The position numbers and the translations under genes were made by a program. From assembly GCF_964355755.1 (NCBI RefSeq), contig NC_092673.1, forward strand, positions 31,245,648-31,309,647: a stretch of DNA of 64,000 bases, read 5' to 3'. The notes below the pieces were generated by a model, which worked only from the letters and a program-made list of their open reading frames with translations, made no database searches and was not told where the DNA came from. Of the stretch, positions 32,470 through 63,382 are shown one piece after another (position 1 is the first letter of the stretch; each line of letters opens with the position of its first letter). This DNA is from Antedon mediterranea (Eukaryota > Animalia > Echinodermata).

Positions 32470-35400
32470 ATTGTTTTAGCATTCTACTGTGTATTTATTG
32501 TCAGTCCGAGTACGTATTTCTAACTCAGCTGAACGCTATTAGACGACATACGCGCCGAGTATATAGCCGAATAGGTGGAAACTGCGGACCTTTAGGGCTG
32601 CTGTCTGAGCTTATGTACAGGATAAAGTTGCTGTCATTGGTGTTTTTGTCATCCCCAATATATACTGCTGCCATTAAAAAAAGATTCAACCTTGTATCGT
32701 GCTGTTTGGCGCCCCGTACAGGATAAAGTTGCTGTCATTGGTGATGTAATCATTAGTAGCCCACTGCGAATGATATCCAAAAAAGTTTATCCTTGTATCG
32801 CTTCACATAAATAAATGCATTTTTACCCCCCTATGTTATGATCCCCACAGGCCCTATGTACAGGCTGTGACCCGGCAGCAATGTCGAATATTGTTTCTCG
32901 CCCTAATACGCACCTAACTACATCATCAAACCTTTTGTATCTTTTCACATGAATAAATCTTCCGGGCGCCCGGTCTTATAATAGCCGGTTAAGAAAAATG
33001 GGAACGTTCGTGTTGTGTGCGTTTAGAGATTTTACATTCACATCACCAATGTCCATCCAGAATTTTGAGAGGGGGAGAGGATGGTCGAAATGTAATAAGC
33101 GCTAAATTTAAAACAATCCGATCATTTTCATTGCCAGGTTCTCAATTTGGAGGTACTGTATATCCGCCTCATCATGCAGTTTTCTAAATATTAATCTATA
33201 TATGTTATCTTAGACAGATTTTAAGTTTTAACTTGGATTTACTTTCGAGATTAATTTGTACATTGACATTATTAAAAGTGAGTGATACGCCTGAATTTTC
33301 GCAATTATCATAATTATACAGATTCCGTAAATTGAAAAAAAAATGTAGCGTTATTTGCTTTTCTTTTTCATGATTAGGCCTACGTCTCCGTTTCGATCAC
33401 CCTCTACTTAATAACATGTCTCGATAACTTAAAAACTCTTATTACACGATAAAAAAGATTATAATAGGCCTACTTATACATTTCGAACTATCTCAAGTCT
33501 TCTGGCTGCTCATATAATTGCTTTATTACGAAGAAAATTATATTACATTAATTTGTGACGAAATGTGTTTTCACCAACCATAAATGTACATAACTCGATC
33601 GCCGCTAATTGGTAGACTACGCATACTGTATATATACACTATTTTTGGTACTTGTAATGAGCCGTTGGGGCGTGTGTGAAGACAGTGAAACTTTTATTGG
33701 CGCGCTTTTCCAAAATAGACACTCAGCTACTATAGGCGGGCCTATTTTCACCTCTTACCGTGCCTATATACACCCTCTCTAAAATATCACTAAAAACATT
33801 TATATGCTCATATCCAAGAATAACAATAACATTATTTTAAATATCATTTTTATTAAAAAGCAGAATGTAGGCCTATGTAAGGGGAAAAAATACCGGGCGT
33901 ATCCTTTAAATAGAAATACAGTATAACGTTTTCGTCTGATGAATATAAATAAAAAATACACAGCATCACAATACTGAAACTGTATTGAAAATATCAATAT
34001 CACATTGTTACGTGCACTGTGTTCAATGGGCTTAACTACAATAATATCTATCGATTAAAGTTTTGCCTTAGAAAAAACAGTTCGTAAAATACATTAAACT
34101 GAAACGACTACTCACTTTGTGGGTTTTTATTACTATAGGCCTTTTGTTGTAGATCTTTTATTTTTCTCCAACTCATGTTTTACTGACGGTTTATTTTCAA
34201 AATAAACCCAAACGGTTTTATTTTTACAAAACTCTTTTTTTTCAAATACTGTATTTAAAATTGAATTAAATATAGAAGAGCCTACAATCTTATTTTATAT
34301 GCATATAGGCCTATATGAAGAATGAAGTACATATATATTGAAGAATATAATACTGTGTATATTAAAAGGTTTATTATTCTAATAAATTATGTATTTATTC
34401 ATTATTCAAACTACACAGATGTCCCTCTCAGAGGGACTCTATGCAGGCATAGCATTGTCACTGACAACCGAAAATAATTAAATATTGGTTAACAAAACAA
34501 ACATTTCTTTAGTTACTTGATTAGAAATGTCACTAACTCGTTGAGAGCGAATATTCTGTAGCAATTAGTAAGATGCAAGATCATTTTCTTGTAGTCATCA
34601 ATATCATTGATTTTGTTGCTATATTTGTATTATAATGTATTCACTATTGATGGCTATTTGATACAGTGCCATTAAAGTATATGCTCTATTGTTCAGCATC
34701 ATAAACAATAAATTTGGTGAGTGGTATTGTAATACACAGACCATTATAGAAAGATATTGAACTGAGACATAATAGACGAGGTCTGTCTACATTTGCTTTT
34801 GAAAATGATGATAACAATTTTAAAAATCTTTGAAATGTTGGGCCAGGAACACTATTGGATAAAAGATAACAAAGTAATACAAAATACTTAGAAAGATTGT
34901 GGTGAAATACTATGGCCGGAATTCATGGTAAACAAATTCAGCATTTGAAGTTTGAAGTTACCAAGGAAGAAAATACAATAGGTATAACAGAGATGCTTCA
35001 GTGAAGAAGTTGGTGTTTTGAGAAAACAATGTTCAGATTCAAGGACAAAAACTGGAGAAAATTAACAGTTTCAGTAACCAACCAATCTTCTTATGCTGAA
35101 GACATTTGGTCTTTGGTAGAGGACCAGTTTGTAATCTTTTTGGATGGTTTCAATACAACCGGATATCAATACTACTTGTGATAGGCAGTATTGCAATGCT
35201 CAAAGAAGATGATGAAGATGAATAAAAAATAGGAGACGTTTTCTAAAGGAAATTTTCAAGATATACACATTGGTGGAAAAGATGTGAAAGGACAAGGTAA
35301 GATTTCAATAACGTTTAATCCTTAAAAACGAGATAGAAACTTGTGAATGCATCCAAGAAAGTTTCACCATCAAGACTCAAATTTTGGTCATCTCTGTTTT

Positions 35401-35554
35401 GATTTGAACAATTATTAAAATGCAATACATTTGCAACAGTGAGAATGATAAAATATTCAAGAATGAGAAAGTTTCAATGAAGACTCAAATCTATTAAATA
35501 TATAAATTCTCAATTCGACCAGTTTACACAACTAAAAAAATGAAATGATTTGCG

Positions 35555-36710
35555 ACAGTGAGAATGAAAAAATTAGCAAGAACGAGAAAATGAGCAAGAG
35601 TGAGAAAATGAGCAAGATCGAAAAAATTGAGCAAGAGTGAGAAAATGAGCAAGAACGAAAAATTGAGCAAGAGTGAGAAAATGAGCAAGAACGAGAAATG
35701 AGCACGAGCGAGAAAATGAGCACGAGCGAGAAAATGAGCACGAGCGAGAAAATGAGCACGAGCGAGAAAATGTGCTAGAGCGAGAAAATGAGCAAGAGCG
35801 AGAAAATGAGCAAGAACGAAAAAATGAGCAAGAGCGAGAAAATGAGCAAGAACGAAAAAAATGAGCAAGAGTGAGAAAATGAGCAAGAACGAACAAATGA
35901 GCATGAGTGAGAAAATGAGCAAGAACGAAAAAAATGAGCAAGGGCGAGAAAATGAGCAAGAGCGAGTTAATGAGCACGAGCGAGAAAATGAGAAAGAGCG
36001 AGAAAATGAGAAAGAGTGAGAAAATGAGAAAGAGTGAGAAAATGATCAAGAGCGAAAAAAATGAGCACGAGCGAGAAAATGGGCAAGAGTGAGAAAATAA
36101 GCACGAGCGAGAAAATGAGCACGAGCGAGAAAATGAGCAAGAGTGAGAAAATGAGCAAGAGTGAGAAAATGAGCAAGAACGAAAAAATGAGCAAGAATGA
36201 GAAAATGAGCAAGAACGAAAAAAATGAGCAAGAGTGAGAAAATGAGCAAGAACGAAAAATGAGCACGAGTGAGAAAATGAGCAAGAACGAAAAAAATGAG
36301 CAAGGGCGAGAAAATGAGCAAGAGCGAGTTAATGAGCACGAGCGAGAAAATGAGCACGAGCGGGAAAATGAGAAAGAGTGAGAAAATGAGAAAGAGTGAG
36401 AAAATGATCAAGAGCGAAAAAAATGAGCAAGAGTGAGAAAATAAGCACGAGCGAGAAAATGAGCACGAGCGAGAAAATGAGCACGAGCGAGAAAATGAGC
36501 AAGAGTGAGAAAATGAGCACGAGCGAGAAAATGAGCACGAGTGAGAAAATGAGCAAGAGCGAGAAAATGAGCAAGAGTGAGAAAATGAGCAAGAGCGAGA
36601 AAATGAGCAAGAGTGAGAAAATGAGCAAGAGTGAGAAAATGAGTGAGAGTGAGAAAAAGAGTAAGAAAATAAGTAAGAGTGAGAAAATGAGCAAGAGTGA
36701 GAAAATGAGC
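35555..36710. repeat. 18-bp minisatellite (gagaaaatgagcaagagt)n
   Basis: Tandem array; accounts for the repetitive ORFs on both strands. Confidence 0.97.
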
Positions 36711-38428
36711 AATTATTGCCAAACTTGGAGTAAAGTGTTTGCTAGTGTGGACAAGACTTAAAGTAAAATAATAAATTTAACTACATTGAACACAAATATT
36801 TTTATTTAGAAACTACTGAAAATTAAATTCAAGTTAAAAGAAATCATTGTTTTAAAGCTCAGGTACAGGCATAAATTTTAAATATAATATTTGGTTAAAT
36901 GTACATAAATCAAATATTTGTAACAGAAATCGAGACGAAAAAACATGAATTTCCCTTAATATGGTCAAATACAAAATTTTGCAAAATTCTTCCATAAAAA
37001 CCAGGAAGACTTTTTTTCAGTAGTTAGGTAGTTAACCTAATGTAATAACATGTCTGGTGACTCCCTAGATGGTGAAAAAAGATGGTGGATATACGGTGGA
37101 TAATTTTTGCTATAGCATGAAAAAAAAAATCTGAAGTTGAATAAAAATATCAGAAATGTAATATTCAAGTTATATTACCTATATTTAGTCATCTGATAAC
37201 ATTTTTTACCACACCGTTTATTTTTCATAGCTTTTTAAAATTCCCCTCTATTTACAAAGTTTGTGTACAAAAGAATAGAGATTTTACTGTGTAATTTGAA
37301 CTATCCCCCCACTGATAAGAAAGTGCTTATTTTCAAAAAGCCTGTGTAACACAAATTAAATCCCAAAAATTATGAAACATAGGGGATACTATAGATCGAT
37401 AATTATTGGAATGTATGATCAATAGAAATTTTTTGCCCGCACCTGGCCTTTAAGTCTTTAATAAACTCCAATTTTGGCAATAAAAGTTTCCAAGGTTTGC
37501 TACTTTTATTTAATATAATGCTTAAACATAGATAATGGATTGTTAAATTGAAAATAGGGTAAAATCAGATAGTTGAATGGGTAGTGAGTTGCAGGTAACA
37601 CCCTTAAATGTATCCTGTAACCACCACTGCATGCAACATACAAGTTATACAGCTCTTTTATACTTAAAACAGACTTGTGGATGTAGTTGCAGTTGACCTG
37701 AAGAGAGTCACATTTACTTTCACCCATGTTTGTTTAGGCCATTAATTCTCCCCTATCAAACATCTTGCTAATATTTTACTGACTAAATATCTCATCACAC
37801 TACCCTTTGTCACCAATCCTAAGCTTCTGTAGCTAAAAAATCCATTCTAAGACACAGATAGTAAACCATACCTCTGTTAGAAGTACTATTATATTTATGT
37901 CAACTTCATCACTGCTTACTTGATGCAATAAAGGAAATAAATAAATAAAGTAACTAATTTACAACTACTCAATTTAGCCAGTAAAAATAAAAGTATTCCT
38001 CCCTGAACTGCTCATACATAAAGCCTGTAATAATAAAAATTAATAGAATATGTCACAGACTCACTCGTATAGGCCGGAATGATAATAACAAAACACATTG
38101 TTGTTTGTCGTCAATGTTTTTATTCTCGTCTATTACAGAGGGCTCCCTACAGTGTGACTAATTTATGAAGCTGGCGGCCTGGAACAATCGCCTTTTTTAT
38201 ACCACGAACTATAAAAAGGACAATATCCTACACTTAAGATCTTGGTTGATTAGTCTTAATATCAAAATAACTTTATGATCAATTTATTAGAAAATCTATA
38301 ACATAATTTCTTGTTTATATGAATAAAACAATGCTTTATTGAACCTTCCAATATGTACGGTTCATATTTCATCGCTACCGACGTTTGGTCGAAGCGACGT
38401 TAACGAAATTTATAATATCAACAAAAAA

Positions 38429-41180
38429 ATGCCGCCGTAAGTATTAATCATTAATTTGTACAATATTTTTAGTAAAAAGTAGTTAAGGATATTAAGAAAT
38501 GTGTTTGTAATTGTTTTCAATAGGTTACACGTCTGATTGGCCTATTAAAACATTATTTGGAGTGGACACACCCATGGTTGGGCTAGGCCATATAGGATGC
38601 ATATCTTCCACAGTAAATACTGCTATATAGAACCCAACAGATTATAGGGCTATTTTCCTGTTGCGCAATTCTCCACACTGTACTGACCTACCCCAACTTG
38701 AACACAAATCAAGTGATGTTTGCAAGGATCAAAACATTCTATTATCAGCCAGAATAAAGGAAAAATAAAATGTACTTAAGAGCATACTAAGCATATGCAA
38801 AAGTTTTTTACCATGTATTTGTTATTTTGTGTTTCAGAGTAAAAACACCCGAGCAACTTACAACAGCAGTTCAGGCTACTCCTGGTAAGTTTTCAGATTG
38901 TGATACTTGTAATTACTAAATAAAAACTACAATTACAGCTGTAATGCAACACACAACATATAAATCTAAGTTCCTGGCTGCATTATTTTTCCCAAAGTTA
39001 GGCAGAAAATATAAGGGTGCTACATTTTCATTACTTGCATGACATGTCACTATTTCAAAAAGCTCCCTAAAAGTCCAAGAAGTAGGACTGGGCTTTGGAT
39101 GTGACATGTCCATGGTTCGTTGGCCTTGAATGCCGATATTTTTTTTGGTGTGCAAGAGACTATTGAGAGGGTTAGGTATATCACTGATATAATCTCTGGC
39201 ATGACATTTGGAAATGGACTTGACTAAAGTTTTGTGTTCAAATTTAGCCTCAACTAGGGTGTGGGATTATATTCAAGCATGGGATTATACTTGAAAATAT
39301 TAAATGTTAAATTTTTTTTTTTCATTCCAGATGGTGGTTGTATCAAAGTAGTGAAAGGGAATACAGCAATGTTTATATATTTGTATAAGGAGGACAGAAA
39401 GATGACGTTGCAATATCTAAAAGAGGAACATCTCATTCAGGTTTGAAGATTTTGGATAGTTTTCTATAGTGTGAATTATGTTTCTTAACTAGTTTTAGGG
39501 TGGAGGTTGCTGCTGGAGGTTTTGGTTACAATCACATGAAGTGATCAGTAATGCTAACTATGCTTAGATCAACCAAGAGAGCTTAATGAACTAGTTGTTA
39601 CAGCCTACACAACAACATCGTCACATTCCTCAATATTTACCTGCAACAATTCAACCAACAATCAAAATATGAAGCCAAGGCATTTTTCTTCAGTCCATGT
39701 TACCTACAATTGTGAAAATCGTTAAATGTTATTATTTTGTTTATCTAGATGATGGAAGAAAACGACCGTATACTAGATGAATTGTTGAATGTGGTGAATT
39801 TGACAGACATTATTGGGCAACGGAAGATTCTGTTTTTGATTCCTAGATTGAATGGTGAGTAAAAAACTACTACATGATTTAAACATTAAGTCATTATCAT
39901 GAATCACTTCAATTTCATAATAATTTGTAAAGTTGGACTTAAGTTGACTTGGAACTAAAAGCAATTCAACTGTATTGACATAACCTGTTCCCAGCAACAG
40001 ACCTCAACTCAAACTAAGCTCAATATAATATGCAACAACAAAATTCAACACTTTGTAACCCCATTGCGTAATGTAGTATGGGTAATCAGTTTGATGTTGT
40101 CATAATTGCTCTGCATGCTCCTGTCAACTAAAATTCAAGTCATGTGCACAACCACAACTACTTACAATCATTTCCATATCCACATAAGCAATGATTCTTT
40201 CAGCTGTTTGCAGTTGCTCGAATGTTGCTATGGCGCAACTAGTTCCTTTCAGTTAAGTCAAGTAGCTTTCAGTTCCAGGTCGACAAGCCAATCTTTATGT
40301 TCAGATTGTTCACATAAATATTGGATAATCTCTTGAATTGGCAAAGAATGATTCATCAAACAAACAATCAACAAACAAGTTTATTACATTCTTCCAGTAC
40401 CTTCAATTATTCCATTGCATACATTGATGGTAACACTCTGTCCTATTGTTCACTACTTGCTCCACATCATATCAATGGCAGTCACACCTAAAAGAAAGCA
40501 TGTGATAAAAGATCAAACACTTTTCTATTTTTAATTCAGCAATGCTGCTACATATGTACCAAAGTTAATTGATATTTTCTGTTGTATGCTGAATTAAATA
40601 TAGAATATTAAACACTGGGCAAATTAAGAACTATCAGTATCTAACTACCAAATTTAAAGTTAATCTGTATCTAGGATGTAAATAGAAAATGGCTACACAC
40701 ATAAACCCCTGTGTGATCTTAAAATTGTCCTAGGTTGAGTTGCAAGAGGTATGGTAATTTAAGTTTATAAATGTAGTGCATACAGTTTCATTACATTTTA
40801 AATGTACATTGACTAACCTAAGCAATGATACACACACCAGAGTAAAAACATTCCCATTTTGATACACCATGTGTGTGAATTTATACAAATGCAGCCTACT
40901 GTATGTGGTGATGATCATTTTGACCATAATTTTCAAATGTGCAGTAGATTAAACCCTTCCTATGACCATTGTGGACAATTTGATATCTTGTGTGTATATG
41001 TAGACGCATGCAAAAGAAAAAATTGTATACCAACAAATGTACAAACACTCTCTCTATATAGATATAAATCACTGAAACATTTATTCCTCTTTAGGTGCTG
41101 ACTTTCGCAATGTTCATTTCGAAGTCTTGGCAGCAGCATCCATCATGAATATAATTTTCAATCTGTTGGATCCAAATTAA
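38429..41180 (+). CDS. Uncharacterised small protein with one divergent ubiquitin-like module (gene A; terminal exon uncertain)
   Basis: Exons 38429-38436, 38838-38884, 39331-39440, 39749-39854 join in frame: MPPVKTPEQLTTAVQATPDGGCIKVVKGNTAMFIYLYKEDRKMTLQYLKEEHLIQMMEENDRILDELLNVVNLTDIIGQRKILFLIPRLN. Candidate last exon 41095-41180. Exon sizes, phases and the VQATP and RILDE motifs are shared with gene B. Confidence 0.6.
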
Positions 41181-42569
41181 AGCTGTTGGATCCAAATTAA
41201 AGCTATTGGATCCAAATTAAAGCTATTGTACACCATTTTACTATAAACGAAATAGTTAGAAAGTTATAAACCCTGTTAAATGTTATGCACTTCCATTCCT
41301 TTCTTTTGCTTGTTATACCTCTGAAAATACACATAAAAAATTCATTGTATAGTATTAAAAAACATGATTTTTAAGGATTAGTGTTATCAATATACCTGAC
41401 TAGTATGTACTGTACATACAGTATACCTGACAACTATAACACTTCAAAGTGGCACAGTTACAAAGAACAGAAAACAGTACAAAATAACATAAAATCAATA
41501 ACAATATTAAGTTAAGAACAAGAAGAATTTGAAAAGCTGCTTTTATCATTGTAGGTTATTAAGGTAATGGTGCTAGATGGATGTGAGACACCCATATTTA
41601 AGGTCTTCCCCTTACAGTAGGCTAAAGCTCATTTAACAAAGCACTCATTTACAAAAACCTCTGGACACCTGTTTTAAGTTTTACACTTCACTAAACTTCT
41701 CTAAATACATACATCACTAGTCAGTTAGTTGTTTGGCTGTACTCAGCTGTTGCACTATTTTATTGTGATGTAAATTATAAAAACAATAATTAGAAAATCA
41801 TAAAAATACGTACTTCCATGTTTTAGGTGACTCACATTTTTTTCTTCCAATTTATTAAGTTCTGCATGCATGTGCTGAAATAAAAAAAAAACTAAAAACA
41901 ATGTTGTTGTATTCAGTACTTTTTTTATTGTTAATTACGACTATACCATTTGTTGAACGTCCCTCTTCAAAAGCAACACTTACATTAATGGACACACCTT
42001 TGTAGCATTTCAAATATTATATATTTTCTCCTGCTGAAAAATAATTTTTGAATAGGCCATTTTAATGTCACCTAATGTAGTTATTGACTTGAAAAAAAAA
42101 TATTTGATTGAAAAAAAAATTATTTGCCCGACAAATAAAACTGAAAACGGTATTCTGGATTAGATTTATACATCCTTATTTTGCATGTACTGGATGGGGG
42201 TATACATCTTTAAAACTACACAAAATAATAAAAATCATATTACTGAATCAATCGATGATACAGTATGCAATTTGCAGTATGAAATCAAAGAATTCCAATC
42301 TGAAAAATTGAGATATACAAAAAAAATTCATGGACAGATGCATTTTATGTTATTTCTAACACTTTTTTTTTAACAACGGAGACAATTTGAGGACATAATG
42401 TGATGAAAAGTTCATTCCATCGTACTACTTGGCCGGACAAACTGCACTCTGCATTGTTTTTTTTGTTATGTACGGTATGTCACTCATCTATTGCTCACCG
42501 GACTTATAGCTGATATTATTATTGAAAAAAATGCTGCCCTCTATCTTGTTCAAAAACAATAATGAATAT

Positions 42570-42960
42570 TTATTTATTCTTTCTTTATTCTGCAGGCACT
42601 TTCAGTACTAGTGCACTGATTTTCAAAGTGGTACAGTAATTGGAAATATCATAACAAACTTAATCAAGTAAAGATAAAGAGTAATCAAAATTATAAATAG
42701 AGAAAATATACATTTAAAATAGAAATCAATTTTAGAAAAGAAAACTCAAATGTTGCATATTGTATTTTGGAATGAAGTTATTGACATATTTTTTAAGTTA
42801 ATTTTTAATTCATTCGGAAGTTCATTCCAGCTTTTACATGAATGATAGTAAAACTTTTTTTTTATTCATACCTTTTTGCCTTGACAAATATTCCAGGTGG
42901 AGATAACTAAATCATTATTGCTTTGGCTTTGTGTGCCTTTAGACTGAAAGGGTGTGCTTA
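42570..42960 (-). mobile_element. Decayed CR1/L2-type LINE 3' fragment
   Basis: Minus strand reads FYYHSCKSWNELPNELK followed by a 3' UTR and an aataaagaaagaataaataaa tail. Confidence 0.6.
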
Positions 42961-43779
42961 TTATTAAATGTCAATAATAGTAATTTTAACCTAACCCTAA
43001 CCCATTCCAAAGTCTTAATATCAACAGAAAGCAAAATTCTATGTAGTCTATTCATGAGTACTTGTTATGTAAACAATTAGTATTTTGAACATTACAATTG
43101 GACCATACACAACAACAATAATAAAAAAGGGGAAATACAAGAGCATTAGCTAACATTGTAAGCGTATATGACGCTTCGCTTCGGTACTTGAATAGCTTCA
43201 GGTGCACTGCAGACATCAATAGAATAGGGAAATTAAATGGCTACCATAATAGTAAGAATAGTAGCGTCAATAAATGATAATAAATTTCATAAAAAAATAC
43301 AATTAATAATCATATTTTCATGTACAGCAGAAATTAAGTTCTGCAAAAAGTGTGCAAAAAGTGTGGGTAGCTGCAACTGCAGGGTCAAAAATATTGATTT
43401 AAAAACTCATTAACCCCCTACCAATAAGTAGAACAGTCCTCGGCATTATTGATTTAATACAAACATCCGATGCATGAAATCAGGGACAACTCCCTGATGA
43501 AATAATTCATGGCATCATAGCGTTCTTTCCATTTCAATGAACGCATTGTTAATAATATACAAGAAGGTTTCAACCATGAAAGCATACAAGCTATTTCACC
43601 ATTTACAAAAGTGAAACTTGTACATTTTCCTGAGAGTTTATACTAGGAAATACTAATAATAATAATAAAAATTTGTAATGCGCCAATTCCAGCAGTAAGT
43701 GATCAAAGGAGCGGTGTATGAGAGAGCTTAATCTGAAAGAAAAAAAGGAGTTTTCAAGGCGATTATATCCTTGCCGTAT

Positions 43780-46700
43780 ATGGGTAAAATGTGTAACATT
43801 ATCGGACGACTGTTTGGTTTGGTTGGTAAGTTTTTTTTTGTAATTAAATGTCATAGTCAATGTCTATTATTCTAACTATTATATATTAACAATTATATTT
43901 AAAGCATCTGTGCCTCGTCTGTTTTTAACCGCTTGCTACGACCTTGATAATATTTATTCATAATTTACTTAAGTTTGAATTTTTTGCCATGTTCACATTC
44001 AAAAATGTGTAACTATTTTTAAATAGTCTAATCCCTGCTCTAATTATTAGTATTCACAAACAATATTTGACTCATAGACTAAGTAAAGGTATGCATAAGC
44101 AGGTACAACATTCTAATACTAACTATTAATTTTGAAAACAAATAATGAAAATTTGCTTATAGATGTTATTGTGTCAAGCACGGAATACGGTACTAATGCA
44201 CATTCATATGTGGCATGACGTGGTGCAGGTTAGTGAAGTGACCTTTACATTAGCATTTCATCCTTATATTCAAGATGCAAGCTACAGATTAATTGAATGA
44301 ACGTTTACTTTAGAACAGTAAGTATTGTAAAACAAATAATAATAATAATAATAATAATTGTAGTTTTCATTGTAGTAATAACCAAGGCAATCCTAACAAC
44401 AGGATACTGAACTCCGGTAGATCAAAGGGTTTATCTGTGGCTGCATTCAGTTTAACAATATGCAAAATTAAATTTAGACACAAAACATCTTTGACTTAAA
44501 ATTACTTTTAAATCCGATCTATTGTGTCTATTTTGATGAAAACAATTTTAGAAATTAGATACCTATTAGAACTTTATATTCGTAAGAAAAATCATTCAAA
44601 TCGGGCTTTTAAAAGTACCAAAATAAATTAAATAAGAATAAAAACCATGAAACGTATGGTCACATACTGTATCCATTAATTTGATGCAAATTAACAGCTA
44701 TAACCACAACTACAGTAGTATGCATTTGTCGCAACCAATCATAAGAGCAAAGGACTGTTACAAGTTCCTATCTTGGCAAGGCAAGCTCAGGCAGGCTCAG
44801 TGTCTTATTGTTAGATTGCCTAATTGTTATAACAAAGTTTTCTTTATAGACGATCTTTAACATGCACAACTGTATAAAGCATAAAATGAAGAAAGCGCTT
44901 TATTATGCTAATATCTTGCTGAAACATGATGAGGTCAGCTATGAATCTAATATTAATTGCTTTTTTACTATAATCAATAGTGTACAATCTTAGTAAATTT
45001 AACATTTTTCAAAATTTACGACTGAATTTCTTTTTATAATGCAATTGTAAGACGATTTTATTAGCCCAAGGGCCATGATCAAAAACCATACAATAGGCTT
45101 ACATTACTTGTACCCACAAGTCCATTGACACAGTACACCACTTCTTATTAATATATTAAGAATTATGAGAATAAAAATAGGTGATATAAAGTAATCTGGA
45201 GATAGTTTTAGCAATAATTTTTGTACATTTCGTAATAAGCTCAGTAGCTTATTTATGTATTTTATAGGTCTGTGTTCCCTGTAAGTTAAACTGGTGAACT
45301 TTGAATTTACTTTTGGCTGGAAAAACTGTTAAAAGTAAAAAATAATGAATTCACCAAAAAAAAAAAATGCAATTACAAATTTCATATCAATTTGATTGAT
45401 TTCAAGTTGCTATACATACAGTAAATAATTGATGATGATTTATATAAATCTATTTATCATCATCAATATTTTATAAAATTTGTTATACTACAATAAGAAA
45501 GTCAGCATTAGACAAATTGGGCTTTTTAAATGTTAAAACTTCATCATCTACGAGTGCAGCATATCCTTGTAATAACCTAGTAATTTTACGTCACTTTTCA
45601 CTATTAATATCTATCGTGTGCAAACACCTACTTAAATGCACACCGATATATGTTTGACCTCAACAATTAAGGTTACAAACAATAGAGGGCGCAATTTTGA
45701 ACAACTTTATTTTCGTTTGCTCGCTCGACCGCTCTCCAAAATAAGCTTTAAAATGTGGTAAATAACTTTTTTTCGATACATTTTGTTATTGTAAATCATT
45801 GTTTCTAAACACATTAGAAGACAATGAATTTGTGAGTCTAAAAGTTATCCCTCGGGCTAAGTAACTTTCTAGGCTACAAAAACTATAGTACATGCCTGAC
45901 GAAGCATCAATATCCTCGGATGAACTCGCCTTTCCATGCCGTATGCAAACCACAGAACAGCAGCGGAAGTAAACCGAGTAATAGAGTAGGCCAGGCTCAT
46001 GTATTTAAGCTTTCCTCAGCTCATGATAAGTTTTTAGTCAATCCAGTAGTCACCTTTTACCTACTGGGACCTAAAACAATCTTTTCTAAATAGATAACCC
46101 ATCTTATTGTGCATGCCAATTAATTTTTTTTAGCTAGTCTGCCTAGTCTAGACATGATGTGCAGAGAAAGTTGTGTTTGATTTTTTTGTTGTTTAGTTTT
46201 GTAGGCCTAGCTGGTAAACATCAGTAACGTACGAACATCGTACACTAGCTATAGGCTAGTCTGACATTGTATAGTTGCTAAATTAATTGTCTTTCTGTTT
46301 TTGCCAGAATCTGTTGATACAAATTGGGGGAAACCCGGTATTTTCGCTGAAAAGTTAGGAGTCATCTATTTGTTTTTGCCTCACTATCGATCAAAAAATG
46401 GGGGAATTTAAAGAAGAAAAACTGAAATATCAATCTGTGCGCAACGTATGTTGGGATTTATATCGGGCCGCTTAAATTATTAGAATCAACTTATTTTTCA
46501 AATTTGTAACCGTTTAAAGATGAAAAAGTTACAGTACCTCAATATATATATTTTATATTTATTTAGTTTGTCACCTTAAATTAAATTTACTGTAAAAACG
46601 ATGAACATTTTTTGGGGATTTAATGTGGAGCATGCGCAAGTTGTACTAACTCGTACAGCAATTACGAGTTATCACAATATTTTAACAGTCTTTTTACCGA

Positions 46701-48133
46701 GATTTACATTTTCACCTTGTAATAACTTTCAACAACTTGTTACATTGAGAGAAATGTACATGTGAAATACAGTAGGTATAAGTGCTTTTACGAAGTATAC
46801 TTGGGTTTTATGAGAGAAATGACATGGAATCCTTGGGATGGATCTAACAATTTGTCCTCACATTTTGGTGCATTGTAGATTTTTTTTAAGTGACTAAAAA
46901 TGTCTTTATTTTTATATTTCAGCACCATACCAGACAATTCAAAAACAGGTAATTAGCAGGGTATACCTAAAGTAACAATTAGTAATTGATTATCAATGCC
47001 CATATTTCCCTAGATTCTCCCTTTTTTCTTAAAGAAAAATAAAATATTTTTAATACAAAAATATCTTCAATTATAGAAATAAACAGAATTGACAGAATAT
47101 AAGACATACAGTATTATAAATGTGTACAGTGCTAATATATAAATAATAAATAAAATTTACAGTTACAGAAAAGTAATATCAGGGAGGGAAAACATTTGAT
47201 TTATTAAATTTTAAATAAAGGATAGGAAGACAGTAAATATTGGTGAAGGTTTTCTAAAGGTTTTTTTTTTATGAAATCATTTTAATAAATGTTTTAATGT
47301 TAACTTTTCATGTTGATTTCTCATTGTAGCTTCCGTAAGATTCATCCTGACCAATGAAGATTTAACCTACAAAGCAGTTAATGTTGACCCCTCGACAAGT
47401 ATAGAAGAATGTCTATCCAAATATTTTTTTGTAAGTAGTTCTTTTTTGTGTTTGAATGTCATTTTAAATAGCTTTAATTTCAATAGCATTCAACTTCCAA
47501 CGTTTTTTTTAATGCTGTTCTTACAAAAACACAAACAGTTCACATGTTATCATTTCAGATTTAAGTTTTTAATTTTTTATGTGTCGTTAAATTTCATTAA
47601 AATGCATAAAACCAGATGATGTATTACAGTATACAGTGTTTCCTCAAAAATGGAAAATAAATCAATCATGTAGGGGCAGAGCGTAATTGCTCTGTTTGAT
47701 CTAGGAAAGTGTACAGTAGTGTCCTGTTGTTTGACTGACTTGATCCGACATACTAGATTAAACATATTTCAACCATTTTATGGTGATGGTGCACCCACCC
47801 AAAGCTCAACCAAATACATAACATACTGAACTGTATTTATACAAAACATGAAATTGTGAGTAGGATGGTAGGAAATCAATATAAACTAATATCAATTAGT
47901 TAGTTCCATCATACTGTAGATTATAAGGGTACCTATACCATACAAACCTTAAAAACAAACATTGAACCAACATAAAAGTAATTGAATCATGTAATGTACA
48001 ACTCGCAATGAAAGAATAATAATTTAACAATAATTTCTTTAAATGTGAAATACTGTAAGTGAGTAGTCATTACATTACATGATTCAATCACTTTTATGTT
48101 GGTTCAATGGCTTTCTAGTTTTTGTTTTGTTTG

Positions 48134-48166
<33 letters not shown>

Positions 48167-51100
48167 GGTTTGCTGTACCCTTTCATAGAGAAATAGGTTA
48201 ATATTCATTTCTTAATTGTATTATACTTTTAATACTCTTCTTTTTTGTTTCTATTTTATATTTAGACAAAAGACAAAATTTGTGTGGATACAAATGGACA
48301 AGTTAACATGAAGGACAAGGTCGGATATGGAAGGGTCTTGTATCTAAAAGAAAGAAAAAAGGGTAAACATTCTACTCATAATAAAACATTTTAAAATTAC
48401 ACAACTTATTACACAATGAATTACTGAATTCATTATTTGATAATATCAATAGTTATTAGAAATGTACCTGTTTCTAGAAATACAATATAATACTATAGAT
48501 GGACTACATACATTTATCAAGATTTTTTTTTAAACCATTTAACAAACAGTTCATATTGTACAACATATCATTAAAATCCACCCCATGGTATACAACTTTC
48601 TGAAAACTATGAGCCACAACATTTTTTCAAGGCATGGGGAGGGCTTGAGAAATTGAACAAAAGGTTCTTACCTTAATACTATTTTTTTTATGTTGGTCAC
48701 TTATACAGCTGGGATTGGGCTGTGGTGAAATAAAAAGTTTGTGCTGGTTTAAGAGTCTTTTGGTACTGTAAACTGAAGTTTTTGGGAATTTCCCATTATA
48801 GTAAAATCATATTACTCTGTTGCAGGTGTTAAAGATGTCCCTTCAGAGGAATTGCCAGACATATCTAGTAAGAGGTAGGTGTGCATCTTATTTTTTATGT
48901 TCACTTTTTGAAGACATTAATGCTGCATTGCCCCATCAAAATTTGCTAATTGTTGTTGTCACGATCTTTTTTTTCTTTTTTTTTTTCTTTATTCTTCTTT
49001 CTTTCCACGAATTTTGTTGGGAGCGTATCTCTAATTCTGGCCAACATAAGATTGTATAACTTTGTCATAAGATTGACCTATATCTGTAGATGTGCAAGAA
49101 ACTTTGTTTTTTGATTTTCGAGTTGCGCAGCGTAAGTTACGCGCAATTTTATGAATTTCAATGATTGATCATAGATTAAAAACCAAAAGTCATTTTCTAT
49201 TGAAACTTGGTGAAAATTTAAGTTATATCATGCGCAAACTTTCTATGGATTCAAAATGGCATGTTTTACATAAGTTACGCGGGCACGCGCGTTCAAAATT
49301 TCAAAATGCGCAAAATTCATTTCTAATCAACTTTCTACGCATTTCATGTCATTTTGAGCATTTCAAAAATTCCCACGCGTGCGCACGTAAGGCAAAAACA
49401 TGTTTTTTTTGCTTGATTTTTGTTTTTTCAGCCTTCTCTAGTAATTTTACCAACTTTCAAACAATTTCGACTTAAAATCACGTCATACGAGCACGTAAAA
49501 TTGAACAATTTGTGCGCATTTTTTTAAAAAAATTTAAAAAATGTGTCAAAATTATACCTTTTTTTGAACAGTCATAGATTCTAAACTACATGGTGAATTT
49601 TTTTTTTTTTTTATATATTCTGAAAGTAGATGAGTGGTAGATATAGAATCATGCATCGATTTGGCTAACCGGACATTGTGACGTCATCGTATGGCCACTC
49701 GAATATCAAATATAGGATTTTTGTCTCTTTCGTCATAGCTCATCACATTTAATAGAGCGCATCTCCACTTATCCGTATTCCATTTCCCTCAATTTTTTTA
49801 TTTTGTCTAGGTCAATCAATTATCTTTCGCATGATTTACCATTTTTAAAATTTTTATGACGTCATCATGTTCAAAAACGTCAATAACTTTGGTCACTTCT
49901 TTTCACCTATTCTGCACTGTATGTAGTACGTATACAGTATATAGTGTATACCGTATATACTTAGACGCGACGCAAAATAGAGGGCACACTAACATTTTTT
50001 TCAATGGCATAATCGTTTTTCTGCGCGCAATATTCTAACGTATGACGTGCACATGGCTTTTGCGCTGCGGATAACCTAACTCGTCCGTAGTGACGAGTTC
50101 AAATCTAGTTTAAATGCTTATTATAAACATGCAGGGAATCTCCCCATTTAGCGACATACTGTACAAAACCTTCATTATTTATTTTCCACTCTCCAAATGA
50201 ATTTAAACAGTTACCTTAACATAAATATATCGTATATATATATATATATATATATATATACGTGGATTTCTTCTTATTATCTTTCTAATCTAACCGTCCT
50301 AAGTAATGTTAATTGAATTAATCATTTTGCTTTTGGTCATCAAAACACTTGAATTGGAAGTCCAGTAACCTTTAACACATATACTGTAGAATTGTGTCAA
50401 ATCAAGTTTATTTCAGTAGAAAGAAAGTAGGCATACACTAGTCATAATACAAACTTTTTTTATATTCTAGAACCAATGTCACACCAGTCGCAAGCCAATT
50501 CAGAGTTCAAGCTACACCTGGTAAATCTGGCAATAACATTTTTATTTCTACAGTTCTAAATAACATTTATTCTTAATACAAACTTGTTGTATAGTGCATA
50601 CTCATAACTAATATTTGATAACCTGTTAAATTTATAATAGAAAAAGTTGAAAAATTAAATAATATTTGTTGTTGCATTGGTAGTGATTAAGTAATTAAAA
50701 TACAATAACTATAAATATATCATGCAGTATTTTATATCATTATAGACTGGCGAAAGATAAAATTACATCATGGTCCATTATTCTATGTAAAAGCAACACA
50801 ACACAGTGAAAAGACTGTAGAAGAATTAATAACTTTCACCACAGAGGTAAATGTACTGTATTTTGTTTTAAGTTTTCATATCTGTTTTTCACAAAGAATA
50901 GGAAGGTTTCAACTACTCATTTAACAGCTTATATATAACCAACTTAACACCAATTATTCTACATCAGTCAACATTTTAACTCCTACATCACATATAACCC
51001 GAGTTACATTGCTCGCTTCACTCGCGTACCATCTAGGTCGTGTCCACAGATGGTTCTCGAATACATAGTAATTTCAACAACTAGCGAATTCAAATGTACG

Positions 51101-52237
51101 AGCTTATTGTGCCTGTTACATACAACTTTATTTACGATATAATTACATCGGGAAAAAATGGCCCTGTTAATAGGGGTTGAATCAAGAATGTGTCCCCTAA
51201 ATAAGGGTTGACCGTAGTGTTAAAACATATACTGTATTGCCACTTGTTTCATCGGAAAGTGTCCCCTTCATACTGTATATTATTTCTCATACCTTGTGAA
51301 TTCATCATGTGCAAATTTATTGACAAGAACAAATTATGTTTAGCCTATAAACACAATGCAATGTCGTATTTTAACCTGAATATTGTAATTCATTCACAGA
51401 TAATTTAACACACAAAATTAATTTTTTGTGTATATTTGGAAATCCAGATGCATCCTCCTTTTATGAACTCAACCTTTTGTTTCTTACTACTGTATACACA
51501 TCAAATTCTGAATGTTAGATGCTCTTTATAATACTATTTTTAGTATTATTATTTCCATATATTGTTATGTTTATACCCATGGCACCATTATCTAAAACTT
51601 TTAAATCTTCCATTAGTAACAAATAATAAGTTTTTATTTGCAAAGGTTCTAACATATGTTCTTTTCTGAATAGCTTGATGCTAGAAAATACAAGCGTATC
51701 TTAGATGAAAACGGTGAAGAAGTTGAACCAACTTCATTGGTTGGAAATAGATGTTACTTTCTTGTTGTGCTAATAAAAGGTAACTGATGTAACACTAACA
51801 CCAACACTTAATAATACAAGGGTAACTCCGAATTTCATAGACAGAATATATTTTGAGAATTTGATGTTTCGATCTGTTTGATCATTTTCATGAATCTGAT
51901 GAGCTTGACAATAATATTTGAATTAACCAATGGGTACTGTAGCTGATATGTTATAGCCAACTATTACTGTATACTCACCCTTACTGGTCAATCCTTGCGA
52001 GTTATTTTGATAACGTGAGGGGTGGGGGTCACATGAAGAAGTGCTAGGCATGCATTATGTAATTCCTGTAATTAAAAATCAAATTAAAATTTTCATCACT
52101 TTTTGTCAGTAACAATTTAGCTATATTTATAGCACATATGTCTGATTAAATAGAGGGCAGAGAGTCAAACAATTGCTTAAAATGACTATATTCTGTTTTT
52201 AGGTACCGCTTGGAGGATGGACAGAGGAGACCAATAG
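43780..52237 (+). CDS. Uncharacterised 207-aa protein with two divergent ubiquitin-like/RBD-like modules (gene B)
   Basis: Exons 43780-43825, 45268-45280, 46923-46948, 47330-47430, 48266-48362, 48826-48874, 50471-50520, 50746-50846, 51674-51779, 52203-52237 total 624 nt, all GT-AG and phase-consistent. MGKMCNIIGRLFGLVGLCSLTIPDNSKTASVRFILTNEDLTYKAVNVDPSTSIEECLSKYFFTKDKICVDTNGQVNMKDKVGYGRVLYLKERKKG...VQATPDWRKIKLHHGPLFYVKATQHSEKTVEELITFTTELDARKYKRILDENGEEVEPTSLVGNRCYFLVVLIKGTAWRMDRGDQ*. The first three exons and the last are less certain. Confidence 0.65.
47925..48185. mobile_element. Hairpin MITE
   Basis: ttgaaccaacataaaagtaattgaatcatgtaatg is inverted as cattacatgattcaatcacttttatgttggttcaa; outer aagggtac/gtaccctt. 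Confidence 0.65.
48920..50110 (+). mobile_element. Non-autonomous Helitron/Helentron-like element
   Basis: 5' T/C-rich microsatellite; 3' hairpin aactcgtc-cgtagt-gacgagtt followed by CTAGTT; CpG-rich relative to the host intron. Confidence 0.6.
51005..51065 (-). mobile_element. Helitron 3'-end remnant related to 16757-16820
   Basis: gctcgcttcactcgcgtaccatctagg..cacagatggttctcgaatac matches the end of the intronic Helitron. Confidence 0.65.
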
Positions 52238-52356: not shown

Positions 52357-54215
52357 TAGTCAAGTCAAAATATGAAAATATAGGGCCTAACCCCAAAAAA
52401 ATTGCAAGAAAATGTTTTTTGATGTATTACAATAAAATATGATCTCAAAAAACATATATCAAATCAGACTACCGCAAAGGTTCAAAATTTGACGTTAAAA
52501 AAGATGGCCGCCAATTTTTAAAAATCGGTAACCGCTTGTAGTAGACAGCTGTATTTGGTGTCAAATTATTCAAAATATATATGTTTATATTTACACTTTT
52601 TGAACATTTTGTTCAAACATGACCGGAAATTCCAGTTTGTGACCTTTGACATATATGGCATGACATTTAATATATAAAAAAATGTTCATATCTACGTAAC
52701 TAAAAACCATAGAGCCTTGATATTGGTGTCAAAATGATCAGAACATACATATTTATATTTACTGTTTTTGAAAATGTTGTTGAAAAATAATCGAAAACAC
52801 AAGGTTTTCCATTTGAAACAATGTCTATACAGAGCCTGTAATATACATACAGGATCTGGAAGAATTGTGTGTGAAAATGGAATAAAGGAAAGGCAATGAA
52901 ATGGCAGTGAAAATAATCAAATACAAACAATGGCAAAGGAACTTGCTTGTGTAACTATACAGTTTAAAAATAATGTAAAAATCATAGATGCAAGAGAAAA
53001 AATATCACGATACACACCAAGAAATGTCAACAAATGAAGAATTAAAACCATCTATAGCACATTGGCCTCTGATGATATCATATCAATGAGTTAAAAGCTG
53101 AACAGTTACAGATTAAATCAAAGTAATTGGAAGCAATAACAAGGAAGAAGTGAAACAATGCAAACTAGCACGTTTACAAGGATTAAAGGAAGGAGGTTAA
53201 AGGGGGAGAAAGTTGTAAGAGCTGTGGTGCAATAATGAAAACAAAATAATTATAATGAAATTCTTCTTGAACATGCCTCAAATCTTGAGTAAGCAAACTT
53301 GAAGTAATGAAGAAGAAATGAAAAAACAGAGTGATGAAGACATAATAATTAAGAACATGGACATTACAATGATGAAATAGTTAAATTATGGATTGTTAAA
53401 CAACAACAACAAAGTTGACTACATGTGTTTCACAACTTTGATGCTTGGAGGCAGAGCCGTTACCAAAAATACACATGGATTAGTTGTCATCCTCGCAAGA
53501 ACTGCTTGACAAATCCAATTATACATTACAATTACATCTAGATTGAACGTCTGAAAAGGGAGAAAACTATGGCACAGTTGGAATTGTCACGATTAGAGCA
53601 TCTACCAAAAGTTATGGGAAACTGGGAACAATGATGGCAAATCAACAGATATATCAAATTTGAAAGTAATCATTCACTACAAACATTATACAGGCTCTGC
53701 TGAAGATAATTCGCGTAACATGCCTCATGTACATGTATGTGAAAATATTTATTTTATATGCTTAAGTATAAAAGGTCAAAACCTTATGTTTTCGGTTATT
53801 TTTGAACAAAATGTTTCAAAAGGGTAAATATAAATATGTATGTTCTGAACATTTTGACACCAATATCAAGACTCTGTGATTTGCAGTTATATAGATATAT
53901 AAACGTCATGCAATATATGTCAAAGGTCACAAAATGGAATTTACGGTCATGTTTGAACAAAATGTTCAAAAAGTGTAAATATAAACATATATATTTTGAA
54001 CAATTTGACACCAAATACAGCTGTCTACTACAAGCGGTTACCGATTTTCCAAAAATTGGCGGCCATCTTTTTTAACGTCAAATCTTGAACCTTTGCGGTA
54101 GTCCGATTTGGGTAAACTTTTGATATATATTTTTTGAGACCATATTTTATTATAATTCATCAAAAAACGTTTTTTTGCAATTTTTTTGGGGTAATAAAAC
54201 AGTTTGACTCGACTA
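52357..54215. mobile_element. Second long-TIR (~430 bp) non-autonomous DNA transposon, Academ-like
   Basis: Termini TAGTCAAGTCAAA / TTTGACTCGACTA; arms about 52357-52790 and 53790-54215 are reverse complements; decayed Cys-rich and acidic coding remnant inside; no clear TSD. Confidence 0.7.
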
Positions 54216-57200: not shown

Positions 57201-58807
57201 TAAACTTTATATTTTTTGTAGATTTTTTTTATGAAATTGTTTGATTTGATGTTTTTAATTAAAGGCCATTTGTAGAAAAAATCCTCAATCCAGCTTTTTG
57301 GCTGCTATAGAATTTTATTTGTCTCAGTGAATTGTTTTTGATGTTCTTTTTGAAATTGAAATAAAGATACCGAGATATATATTATAAGACAGAGCCGTTG
57401 GGGCGGGTGTGAAGACTGTGAAACTTTTATTGGCGCGCTTTCCTAAATCCTTAGTAGATAACACTAAGCTAAAGTGTTTCCAAATAAATATAATTTACGA
57501 AGGCCTATTATTGTATTTTATTTTCACCTCTTACCCTGCCTTTACACCATCTCCACCTATCTCAAATAAATGCAGAAAATATCACTAAAAAATATTTGAA
57601 TAAGAATAACATAAAAACTAAACCAGGTCAAAAAAGACTTGAAATTTTAAGTATTATTTTTATTAAAAAGCGGAATGTATGTAACTGGAATAGAAATAAT
57701 TTTATTTCGTTTTCTTCTTCTTCTGAATATAAATGAGATCAAAATACAAAGCATCACACTACTGAACTGTATTGAAATATCACATTGTTAAGTGCACAGC
57801 TGTGTCCAATGGGCTTAACTACAACAGAAATTTCTGTAAAAAACTTTAGACTAGGTATCGATTAAAAGTTTTAGAAAAACCGGAGAGTTTGTGAAATACA
57901 TTAAACTGAAACGATTACAGTTTATGGGTTTTTTTTTTTATTACTATAGGCCTTTCACTGTAGATCATTTTTTCTCCAACTCTCTAGGCCTAATTAAAAT
58001 ATGTCAAAAAAGGCTAAAAACGCCTGAGGTCTCCAGAGTTCATTATTCCTGGGTATTTGATGACAGTACCATAATGTGCTCTTTGTTGCAAAAATAATGC
58101 ATTGTTCTTGTAAATTGCATAAAACTATTATTTTACACTAAATAACGTCATTTTGTTTTCATCAGTGAGTTCTTGGTGACTATACAATACAGACCACATA
58201 GAAAGATATTAGAAATTCTAAAAAGAGGTATAGTACTAAGAGGTCTCTGAATCTGTCTACCATTGCTTTTAGAAAGAAAATGATGATACAAACGTTCTAA
58301 ATTGTTGGACCAGGAAAACTATTGGAGATATCCAACCAGAGAACCAAGGATTTCAATTTAATACAAGATAACAATGTCTAAATTATGATCTTATCAGCAT
58401 TTTAAACTCCAAGGATATGGTTGTTAAGGATCTGCTTCAGTGGAGATGTTGGGACAACTTGGTGTTGTGAGAAAGACAGTGGCAAGAAACTGGGTAAAAT
58501 GAATAGTTAGATAGTTTTTCTTGGAGTTTGTAATCTTTTGGATGGCGTCAATACCACTTGTGTGATAGGCTGTACTGCAATCTAAACTCAAAGAAGATGA
58601 ACTAAGAATAGGAGAAGATTTCTAAAATAATTTTTCAAGACATTGGTGAAAAAGATGTGAAAGGTAAGATTTCAATACAGTACTTACATCGTAACATTCA
58701 ATCTTCAAAAACGAGATAGAAACTTGTGAATGAATCTAAGAAAGTTTCACCATCAAGACTCAAATTTTGGTCATCTCTGTTTGATATGCAGATGCTCAAT
58801 TAGACCA

Positions 58808-60040: not shown

Positions 60041-61459
60041 AAAGTTTCACCCATCAAGACTCAGATCTCTGTTTGATATGTAAATACTCAATTAGACTAT
60101 TTCACACCACTAAAACAAAGCGTGAGAATGTTTCATCAATCAAGACTCACATTTTGTTTTTTTCTCATTGATATATTCAGATTCTCTGTTGTTCTACCAC
60201 CACTTTACGTAAATAAAACATTGATTTCTTTTTTGTACAAAAATCAATGATAAATGTTATATAGCTCTGTTTACTTCCCAGTCTAGTCAAACTTTAGCTA
60301 GACAAGCTTGGAAACTTTTATTGTCAAACTTTGAATTCGCTAAAGTTTGTTAGTGTAGCTTACAGTAGCAAACCTTGAAAACTTTTAGTGCAAATTACAA
60401 TTTAAACTTGCTAAAGGTGGCAAACTAAAGTTTCTTAGTGTAGACTAAGCTTAACTTAAAATTAGCAAAATACATTAAGCATCTTCAGTAGTTTCTAAAT
60501 AAAAAAATTTATATTTTTGTTAAATATAGTAACTTTATTATTATTACCAAGTAATATTTAAATGGAAATAAGCTTATAGCTTTTTGGGCTATCCTGAAAA
60601 AATCTTTTATAAATGTTTTTATTTGTAATGTCAGTAATTTATGTTTGATGATTTTTTGGATTAACGGATTCTCAAATTGAAGATAGGGTAATGGGGGTAG
60701 TGAGTTGCAGGCAACCCTTTTCAATTTATCCTGTCATCACCCCTGCATGTAACATAAAGTTATAATTGTGGATGCAGCTGTGGTGGGCAGAGTCACATTT
60801 ACTTTCCTCAAGTTTGTTTAGACCATCTAGCTTAATGCTCACCTTGCACACAACTTGAAAATCTTGTACTGACTATCTCACTTAAACTCTATTAAAGTTA
60901 CCAATTTACACCTATTCAATTTAGCCAGTAAAAAAACGATTCCTTGTCATAACCTTTCATATAAAATCTAACTTGTTTTCAGATGGTCCTAACCTTAACT
61001 TACAGTTACTGTATTTATCAGTAACGGATATGATATAATGTAACAGCCGTAAAATGGACGTATCAACAGTTCCTATTTGAAACTTGAAACTTTGTGTGTG
61101 ATGGGTATATATTATTACATAGGACTGTGACCCACAGTCGGTTATGCTTCGAAGCCCAAAATGGTATTCAGAATGATTCCGAGAATATTTTCTCTCTCTC
61201 CAGCCGCTCTGAACCAGTAGGAAATGGTGATATATAAGGCCTGTTATTCTCAAAGAAATTTCTAGAATAACATTAATATTTAAATCGAAGAAACAAAGTA
61301 AAAATGTTGCTTACATGATTGTAAATTATTAGTATTAATTACAATTACAAACGTAACAAACGCAAAACAATTGCCGGCCTGGACGCATATTCTTTTAGAC
61401 AAAAGGTCATATATCATGACCTTACTTCCGAGGCGACGAACAAAAATAGCGATAACACA

Positions 61460-61917
61460 ATGTCGCCGTAAGTATTTAATAATTTGTAGATCTGTAGAAT
61501 ATTTTTTAGTAGAAAGTAGCTAAGATATTAATAAATGTGTAGAGTTTCTAATAGGTTACTGTGTCTGATTGGTCTATTAAACATTATTTGGAGTGGACCA
61601 ACTGAAGTTTGGGGCTAGGCCACATAGGATGAATATCTTTCACAGTAAAATACTGCTATATAGAACCCAACAGATTATAGGGCTATTTTCCTGTTGCGCA
61701 ATTCTCCACACTGTACTGACCTACCCCAACTTGAACACAAATCAAGTGATGTTTGCAAGGATCAAAACATTCTATTATCAGTCAGAATAAAGGAAAAATA
61801 AAATGTACTTAAGAGCATACTAATCATATTCAAAAGTTTTTTACCATGTATTTGTTATTTTGTGTTTCAGAGTAAAAACACCTGAGCAACTTACAACAGC
61901 AGTTCAGGCTACTCCCG
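61460..61917 (+). pseudogene. Truncated duplicate of gene A (exons 1-2 only)
   Basis: ATGTCGCC|gtaagt 61460-61467 and exon 61871-61917 (VKTPEQLTTAVQATP) are intact, but sequence homologous to about 39090-40270 (both domain exons) is missing near 62210. Confidence 0.65.
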
Positions 61918-63382
61918 GTAAGTTTTCAGAATGTGATACTTGTAATTACTAAACACATCTACACATTAAAGAATAGCAAATAAAACATTTTCATATGATA
62001 GTTATCAATTTCAGCTGCAATGCAATGCAACCCACAAAACATAAATCTAACTTCTTGGCAGTGTGACTCGGAACCGACTATGCAATTTACAGTGTGCATG
62101 CGGATAAGAAAACTTCCACAGCCCAATATGGGCAATGCTAGGCAGCTTCTGACCACGCCTCATCTAAACGCATTACTAAAAAAAGCTCCCCAATAGCGCA
62201 GGAAGTTGGATATTTCTAGGTTGACAAGCCAATCTTTATGTTTATGTTCAGATTGTTCACATAAATATTGGATAATCTCTTGAATTGGCAAAGAACGATT
62301 CATATATTTGTAAATCAGTACCTTCAATTATTCCATTGCATACATTTAACACTCTGTCCTAGTGTATATTACGTTTACTACTTGTTCCACATCATATCAA
62401 TGGCAGTCACACCTAAAAGAAAGCATGTGATAAAAGATCAAACACTTTTTAAATCTTTTAATTCAGCAATGCTGCTATACATGTACCAAAGTTAATTAAT
62501 ATTTTCTGTTGTATGCTGAATTAAATATAGAAAAACACTGGACGAAATGAGAAAATTTAAAGTTAATCTGTAAGAGAAAACACATAAACCCCTATGTGAC
62601 CTTAAAATTGTCCTAGGTTGAGTTGCATGAGGATGGCAATTTAAGTTTACAAATGTAGTGCATACAGTGATACTGATTCACACACCAGGTTTAACTGTAT
62701 CCATCATGAAGATAATTTTCAGTCTGTTGGATCCAAAGTAAAGTTATTATATGACTATGAAAGAAATCTTCCAAAATCATGCTCCCAGTTTACCACATTT
62801 TCTCCCGGATTACAAAAATAACTTAATTTTGTGTGTGTGTTTTTTTGTATTAAAATCGGTAACAAAAAAGGCTTACACACAAGCATATTTACAATAATGA
62901 CAAAAAAATGACAATAACCTATTGATTGTTAAGATCTCAGTTGATTAGTATCAAATTATTAAAAAAATATTATTATTAATAGAAAATCCATAACATAATT
63001 TATAGTAATCCATTAGATATTGCTCACTTAAGGGTGTCTAGAACACTTCGCTTTGGGAAATATATACTCCCTCAAGAAAAATATCATTCCTCGTGGATGT
63101 CAAATCTTATATTTCACTGATATTAAAGGTGATATATGTAATATTATAGCCAAATATCAGTAGACTTGGTTGTAGGTAAGACTATCTGCTGGGTCAGCTA
63201 AGTCTGCCTAGCTAGAGTAGGCATGCGTTCACCTTACCTTGCGAAGAATGACCGTATAAAAGCACATAATTACTAATTGACCAGGCCTAAGCATATTACA
63301 TTTCGCCGTGGCTAAAGATACGGTACCGTATTCTAACTTCTGTTTACTATAGGTACGGTAAAATTGCATTACGTCATAACCA

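Follow-up and report, generated by a model that had tools for sequence, protein, structure and literature searches.

The window analysed here, a 64,000-nucleotide (nt) stretch of Antedon mediterranea DNA (contig NC_092673.1 of assembly GCF_964355755.1, positions 31,245,648 to 31,309,647 of the forward strand), is AT-rich (~31% GC) and holds two neighbouring genes on the + strand, A (38429-41180) and B (to 52237). The two are intron-rich and carry three copies of a cassette of small exons, each copy coding for one module of ~70 amino acids (aa). We are almost certain that the genes are real.

Each cassette consists of a linker exon of phase 2-1 (47, 26 and 50 nt), an exon a of phase 1-0 (110, 101 and 101 nt for modules 1, 2 and 3) and an exon b of phase 0-1 (106, 97 and 106 nt). 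A first-pass annotation, made from the sequence letters alone, had described these sizes and phases along with several shared motifs, and the description was accurate throughout. All nine exons lie where it had put them and the chain stays in phase, two of the three linkers end in VQATP, RILDE is common to modules 1 and 3, and module 1 ends in ILFLIPRLN followed by a split Gly. As it had also remarked, open reading frames (ORFs) reveal almost nothing of the genes: a single one of the six domain exons falls inside any of the 28 ORFs of at least 100 aa (47317-47619). The connector exon 48826-48874, the last exon of gene A (41095) and the duplicate at 61445-61953 were absent from that account. 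Scored with an approximate animal splice matrix, all 12 acceptors were at or above the 95th percentile among 3355 AG, and all 11 donors at or above the 88th percentile among 3557 GT. A scan for linker-a-b cassettes returned the three known ones on the + strand and none on the - strand; local shuffles gave a cassette in 0 of 200, under a lenient null with size windows derived from the finding itself.

High CpG at the promoter along with low CpG in the body is the pattern of long-transcribed invertebrate genes with methylated bodies. In the gene bodies the observed/expected ratio (o/e) of CpG was 0.18-0.33, and the two CpG-rich, promoter-like regions (Table 1), comparable in this ratio to the MORN5 promoter described below, together with these CpG-poor bodies indicate two genes. 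A single three-module gene was considered as well, as a 13 nt micro-exon candidate of phase 1-2 (45268-45280) could link A and B in frame; no transcript containing it was seen. We disfavour this joined gene because a spliced contig of gene A runs into the stop-bearing exon 41095, and because of the second CpG-rich region.

Gene A codes for 118 aa with one module, module 1. Among contigs of the public run X1 aligned to 39315-39875, one of 434 nt omits exactly the intron 39441-39748 (308 nt, GT..AG), and the sequence left over at its two ends corresponds to the linker exon and exon 41095. Hence three of the four gene A introns are supported, one of them exactly. The joint was seen in none of three other runs. 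Contig and window disagree in the linker, at the 3' end of exon b (final five nt) and in the last exon, and we take the contig to come from an allele or a close paralogue. It may also derive from a retrocopy, which would carry identical splicing. It should be noted that none of the runs is recorded as RNA, that X1 is conjectured to be RNA and that unspliced pieces are present in it too.

Table 1. Exons and related features of genes A and B (window coordinates; percentiles and scores from the splice matrix)
Feature	Position	Strand	Evidence and remarks
CpG-rich promoter-like region, gene A	38050..38450	+	CpG o/e 1.53 against 0.23 in gene body; putative promoter
Gene A first coding exon, ATG, phase-2 donor	38429..38436	+	Sequence; retained in duplicate at 61461; junction in no run
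Gene A linker exon, phase 2-1, ends VQATP	38838..38884	+	Splice score; matches 5' loose end of X1 contig
Module 1 exon a, phase 1-0	39331..39440	+	Spliced X1 contig, joint 39438-39747
Module 1 exon b, phase 0-1	39749..39854	+	Spliced X1 contig; last 5 nt differ from window
Gene A last coding exon, stop TAA	41095..41180	+	X1 contig 3' loose end; acceptor 99th percentile
CpG-rich promoter-like region, gene B	45550..46000	+	CpG o/e 1.10
Gene B candidate first exon, ATG, phase-2 donor	45753-45757	+	Opens 189-aa frame; X1 contigs cover bin 45510-46043; junction unseen
Gene B first linker exon, phase 2-1	46923..46948	+	Acceptor 99.5th, donor 99.2nd percentile; outside RefSeq protein; junction unseen
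Module 2 exon a, phase 1-0	47330..47430	+	Splice score; X1 contigs cover bin; upstream of RefSeq start; junction unseen
Module 2 exon b, phase 0-1	48266..48362	+	RefSeq protein starts at internal Met
Connector exon, phase 1-2, module 2 to module 3 cassette	48826..48874	+	In XP_071947051.1; donor 99.8th percentile
Gene B second linker exon, phase 2-1, ends VQATP	50471..50520	+	In XP_071947051.1
Module 3 exon a, phase 1-0	50746..50846	+	In XP_071947051.1
Module 3 exon b, phase 0-1	51674..51779	+	In XP_071947051.1
Gene B last coding exon, stop TAG	52203..52237	+	In XP_071947051.1; X1 record starts 52201
Duplicate of gene A first exon and linker exon	61445..61953	+	90% identity over 516 nt

Gene B turned out to be partly annotated already. 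The RefSeq protein XP_071947051.1 (Antedon mediterranea, 'uncharacterized', no domain label) is identical throughout to the C-terminal 131 aa of the gene B chain, and five junctions agree, including those of the connector exon, which places modules 2 and 3 in one protein. XP_071947051.1 is itself a prediction, probably made on the same assembly, so that the agreement is no independent proof. The RefSeq model is truncated and omits most of module 2: upstream of its start 56 codons are open with no Met among them, and the candidate ATG exon at 45753 would yield a protein with modules 2 and 3 whole. A strong acceptor (score 7.8) in the first intron marks a further possible exon, 46308-46337 or 46353; if included, this exon would have a stop as its second codon (codon 2), a possible reason why the RefSeq protein begins at an internal Met. 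A stop directly after the connector exon was also considered, and is disfavoured by the RefSeq model and the strong donor. The X1 record starting at the last acceptor (52201) leaves 101 letters upstream, taken as the size of module 3 exon b, and is indirect support. The spliced contig bears out the first-pass junctions for one intron of gene A. Those of gene B were not seen in a wide alignment of X1 contigs, which gave no predicted intron among the 15 joints listed out of 149 and speaks neither for nor against them. X1 contig cover is absent in 4 of 30 bins and carries no weight. The introns of gene B also contain very high-copy repeats (48700-50300 and 46044-46577), with summed contig depth more than 1000-fold the single-copy level.

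Further, we searched for relatives of the modules. A profile built from the three b exons gave five matches among 1.84 billion representative proteins, one of them strong (XP_071947051.1, E 4e-21, which sits in a cluster of one) and the other four unrelated repeats or low scores. The gene A protein was not found in the same set. With XP_071947051.1 as query only the protein itself was found among 21 candidates, and a 43-aa stretch over module 2 exon a gave one candidate and none scoring. Pfam had no match for XP_071947051.1 nor for single exons, and no relative was detected among PDB sequences, in the ESM Atlas (best 0.78 and 0.75), in viral and metagenome contigs or in Rfam. The word-index search also missed the host's own MORN5 (best 88%), and blanks from it are therefore weak. 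In the literature, going by titles and abstract openings of the papers listed, no paper names XP_071947051 and nothing was found on the module family.

Judged by their sequences the three modules are homologous to one another. The similarity resides mostly in exon b and is clearest between modules 1 and 2 (p 0.0004-0.001), followed by modules 1 and 3 (p 0.002-0.007) and modules 2 and 3 (p 0.03-0.18). A segmental duplicate pairs 33659-41207 with 57392-62748 at mostly 67-78% identity and includes a shared satellite (35569-36712, 58807-60040). The second copy retains the promoter-like region, first exon and linker of gene A and is without both domain exons; the stretch 38980-40270 has no match in it. 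A patch of 300 nt (38615-38914) is 98% identical between the copies, which suggests recent exchange. We think it likely that the family expanded as the three-exon cassette was copied inside a gene, and likely also as genes were copied in segmental duplications, one copy losing its domain exons.

Variants of module 1 are present in the runs, one in X1 (93% identity over 350 nt) and two further ones in X2, X3 and X5. Exon a of the X1 variant has nine non-synonymous and two synonymous changes, with no stop and no listed indel. Its proportions of non-synonymous (pN) and synonymous (pS) changes are 0.103 and 0.098, as compared to 0.053 for the intron, and no contrast is significant; with 23 of 25 changes listed, 11/110 exon against 12/228 intron changes (p 0.11) leave positive selection unsupported. 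The best reading is an orphan family of crinoids that evolves fast. The lineage restriction and fast divergence proposed in the first-pass annotation are upheld within the libraries searched.

The same annotation saw a likeness to ISG15 or FAT10, and the end of module 1 was thought to resemble ubiquitin. In gene B the module length and the tandem pair do recall these proteins, whereas a 33-residue linker between modules 2 and 3 and the tails after the modules set it apart. Conjugatable modifiers of this kind, or single-Gly ones like Atg8 and Ufm1, would be cut after the Gly that follows each module, and this Gly indeed stands six residues past the conserved last-strand Leu in all three. On the other hand it is the split codon of a phase-1 G-G junction, favoured by the splice consensus itself, and directly before it the X1 contig has other residues than the window does. 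A terminal diglycine is found at no module end and at neither protein C-terminus; gene B is without any GG, and the sole GG of gene A (residues 20-21) is at the module start. Against 58 ubiquitin ORFs module 2 reached a best p of 0.002, but the best values for modules 1 and 3 were 0.35 and 0.046, and the medians for modules 1 to 3 were 0.91, 0.22 and 0.55. By sequence there is thus no consistent similarity to ubiquitin, module 1 included. The missing diglycine and the split-codon Gly make conjugation unlikely, and we regard such modifiers as very improbable.

A beta-grasp fold, as first suggested, still seems to us the probable one, from the order of secondary-structure elements and a weak signal of the DCX domain in module 3. 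The DCX domain has a ubiquitin-like fold (PMC1550402). The b exons looked most like this domain, and DCX domains were hence fetched by pattern from 25 metagenome loci, of which 21 were discarded as non-DCX by eye and four, true by Pfam, were used (44-75 bits; the PF03607 gathering score is 22 bits). Module 3 aligns without gaps to all four in one register (p ~0.002); the alignment is to C-terminal DCX domains and takes in a hairpin ending in Gly. Shuffles scored as well in 73, 4, 6 and 1 per 1000. On a profile of the four domains module 3 scored 6.1 bits, a value that 3 of 2000 shuffles reached; in the comparison with two of the domains it also did better than 574 decoy windows. We consider the DCX branch of the beta-grasp fold possible for the modules, at somewhat below even chance. 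In likeness to the proteins of PF03607 (the DCX, DCLK and DCDC2 group) there are one or two repeats per protein; the modules differ in being without kinase or long tail and in evolving far faster. The three vertebrate-type DCX loci among those fetched appear to break after the GKQ motif, whereas the intron of the modules comes before that strand.

Several results limit the case for the DCX ancestry and for the fold itself. The DCX test was post hoc and drew on four domains of which three are closely related; we put the corrected p near 0.04. Modules 1 and 2 gave no DCX signal in the directed test, the similarity stays far below the gathering score of PF03607, which neither XP_071947051.1 nor single exons reached, and in the DCX comparison hhalign gave P 0.26 and BLASTP no match. 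Structure models cover a whole module for module 3 only. AlphaFold gave a predicted local distance difference test score (pLDDT) of 36, and the best structural matches were not beta-grasp. The module 3 model runs S2-H-S3-S4-h-S5 at pLDDT ~50 with S1 unformed; exon b of module 3 modelled alone has strands at 7-10, 17-18 and 29-32 (pLDDT 69). Among 50 VIA rows of the full model there was no DCX, CIDE-N, PB1 or RA chain, which implies no exclusion, and the best rows were HPr, MinE and ACT-like chains. These rows, the low confidence of two predictors, the close pN and pS values of the X1 variant, the duplicate without domain exons and the RefSeq start inside module 2 would all fit modules that are not beta-grasp: an orphan family of recent origin that has some other small alpha/beta fold (an HPr- or ferredoxin-like plait) or folds poorly, and that drifts as selection on it is relaxed. 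We hold this to be unlikely, although it must be taken seriously.

Further, the modules might belong to a different class of non-conjugated beta-grasp adaptors (CIDE-N/CAD, PB1, RA or RBD). They would then take part in signalling, apoptosis or defence, either as decoys or as binding partners, and might self-associate by way of a basic first strand and an acidic loop. The CIDE-N/CAD domains (DFFA, DFFB and CIDE; PF02017) form a beta-grasp subgroup common with DCX, and in PMC2426694 the Dffb domain is split by a phase-0 intron as the modules are, and EDGT is given as the CIDE-N signature. Phases 0 and 1 are however common in general, EDGT is found in none of the three modules (module 3 has ENGE and module 2 TNGQ at the likely place), and the modules have no nuclease, inhibitor or CIDE-C part. 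As to the Raf-type Ras-binding domain once proposed for module 2, neither half of the module matched the Raf RBD or RA families in Pfam and exon a matched no PDB sequence. PB1 domains have an acidic OPCA loop, a basic first-strand Lys and a second helix. An acidic loop and a basic strand occur in module 3 only, where the modelled helix has four residues, and the last two strands are joined by so short a link that a second helix would scarcely fit. With no Pfam match to any of these classes, we find the adaptors rather doubtful.

The proposal we favour, tentatively, is that the two genes encode non-conjugated beta-grasp docking modules, probably derived from a DCX-type domain. From the lack of any N-terminal signal-like stretch we infer cytosolic proteins. 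The proteins would bind a partner on the module surface and would not be attached to targets. If the DCX ancestry holds, the likeliest partner would be tubulin, the microtubule lattice or a protein scaffold; the two-repeat protein of gene B could attach to microtubules or bundle them, and that of gene A, with its single repeat, could bind tubulin or compete. PMC1550402 describes such behaviour for one- and two-repeat DCX proteins. That the modules have kept microtubule binding seems doubtful to us. By analogy with a DCX-family protein in human sperm (PMC13515645), a germ-line role is conceivable. A bolder version, improbable in our view, would make them a crinoid-specific family of miniature DCX-derived proteins with one and two repeats, beyond reach of every profile library. 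The diversification of such a family would be still going on, as cassettes are duplicated, exons are lost and copies exchange sequence, and the selection behind it would act in the germ line or be directed against parasites.

Elsewhere in the window a MORN5 gene of five exons (603-2462, - strand) has 85% identity to Amphiura MORN5 and a promoter CpG o/e of 1.29. In a tree of 19 rows it is placed beside this brittle star (support 97/96). A large element at 27054-32976 has nested inverted arms of ~2 kb, complementary at 87-100%, that flank a short ORF (29222-29617); directly downstream of the ORF is an acidic stretch. The element has no Pfam match and resembles a DNA transposon in decay. Two copies of a GC-richer element (23632-23982 and 25195-25538), ~1560 nt apart, are 92-97% identical in the pieces listed and have no Rfam match. 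Directly past the end of gene B lies an inverted repeat pair (52390-54192, ~430 nt, 86%) that resembles a miniature inverted-repeat transposable element.

At the least, these results amount to an annotation correction: one RefSeq model is truncated, and one expressed gene codes for a protein that did not turn up in any library searched. If the fold is another, the genes would be an ordinary lineage-specific orphan cluster. If both the fold and the DCX ancestry are true, an apparent orphan family would have come from an old cytoskeletal domain, diverged beyond recognition and traceable via its exon phases, and the question would arise of what a fast-evolving DCX-like protein binds.
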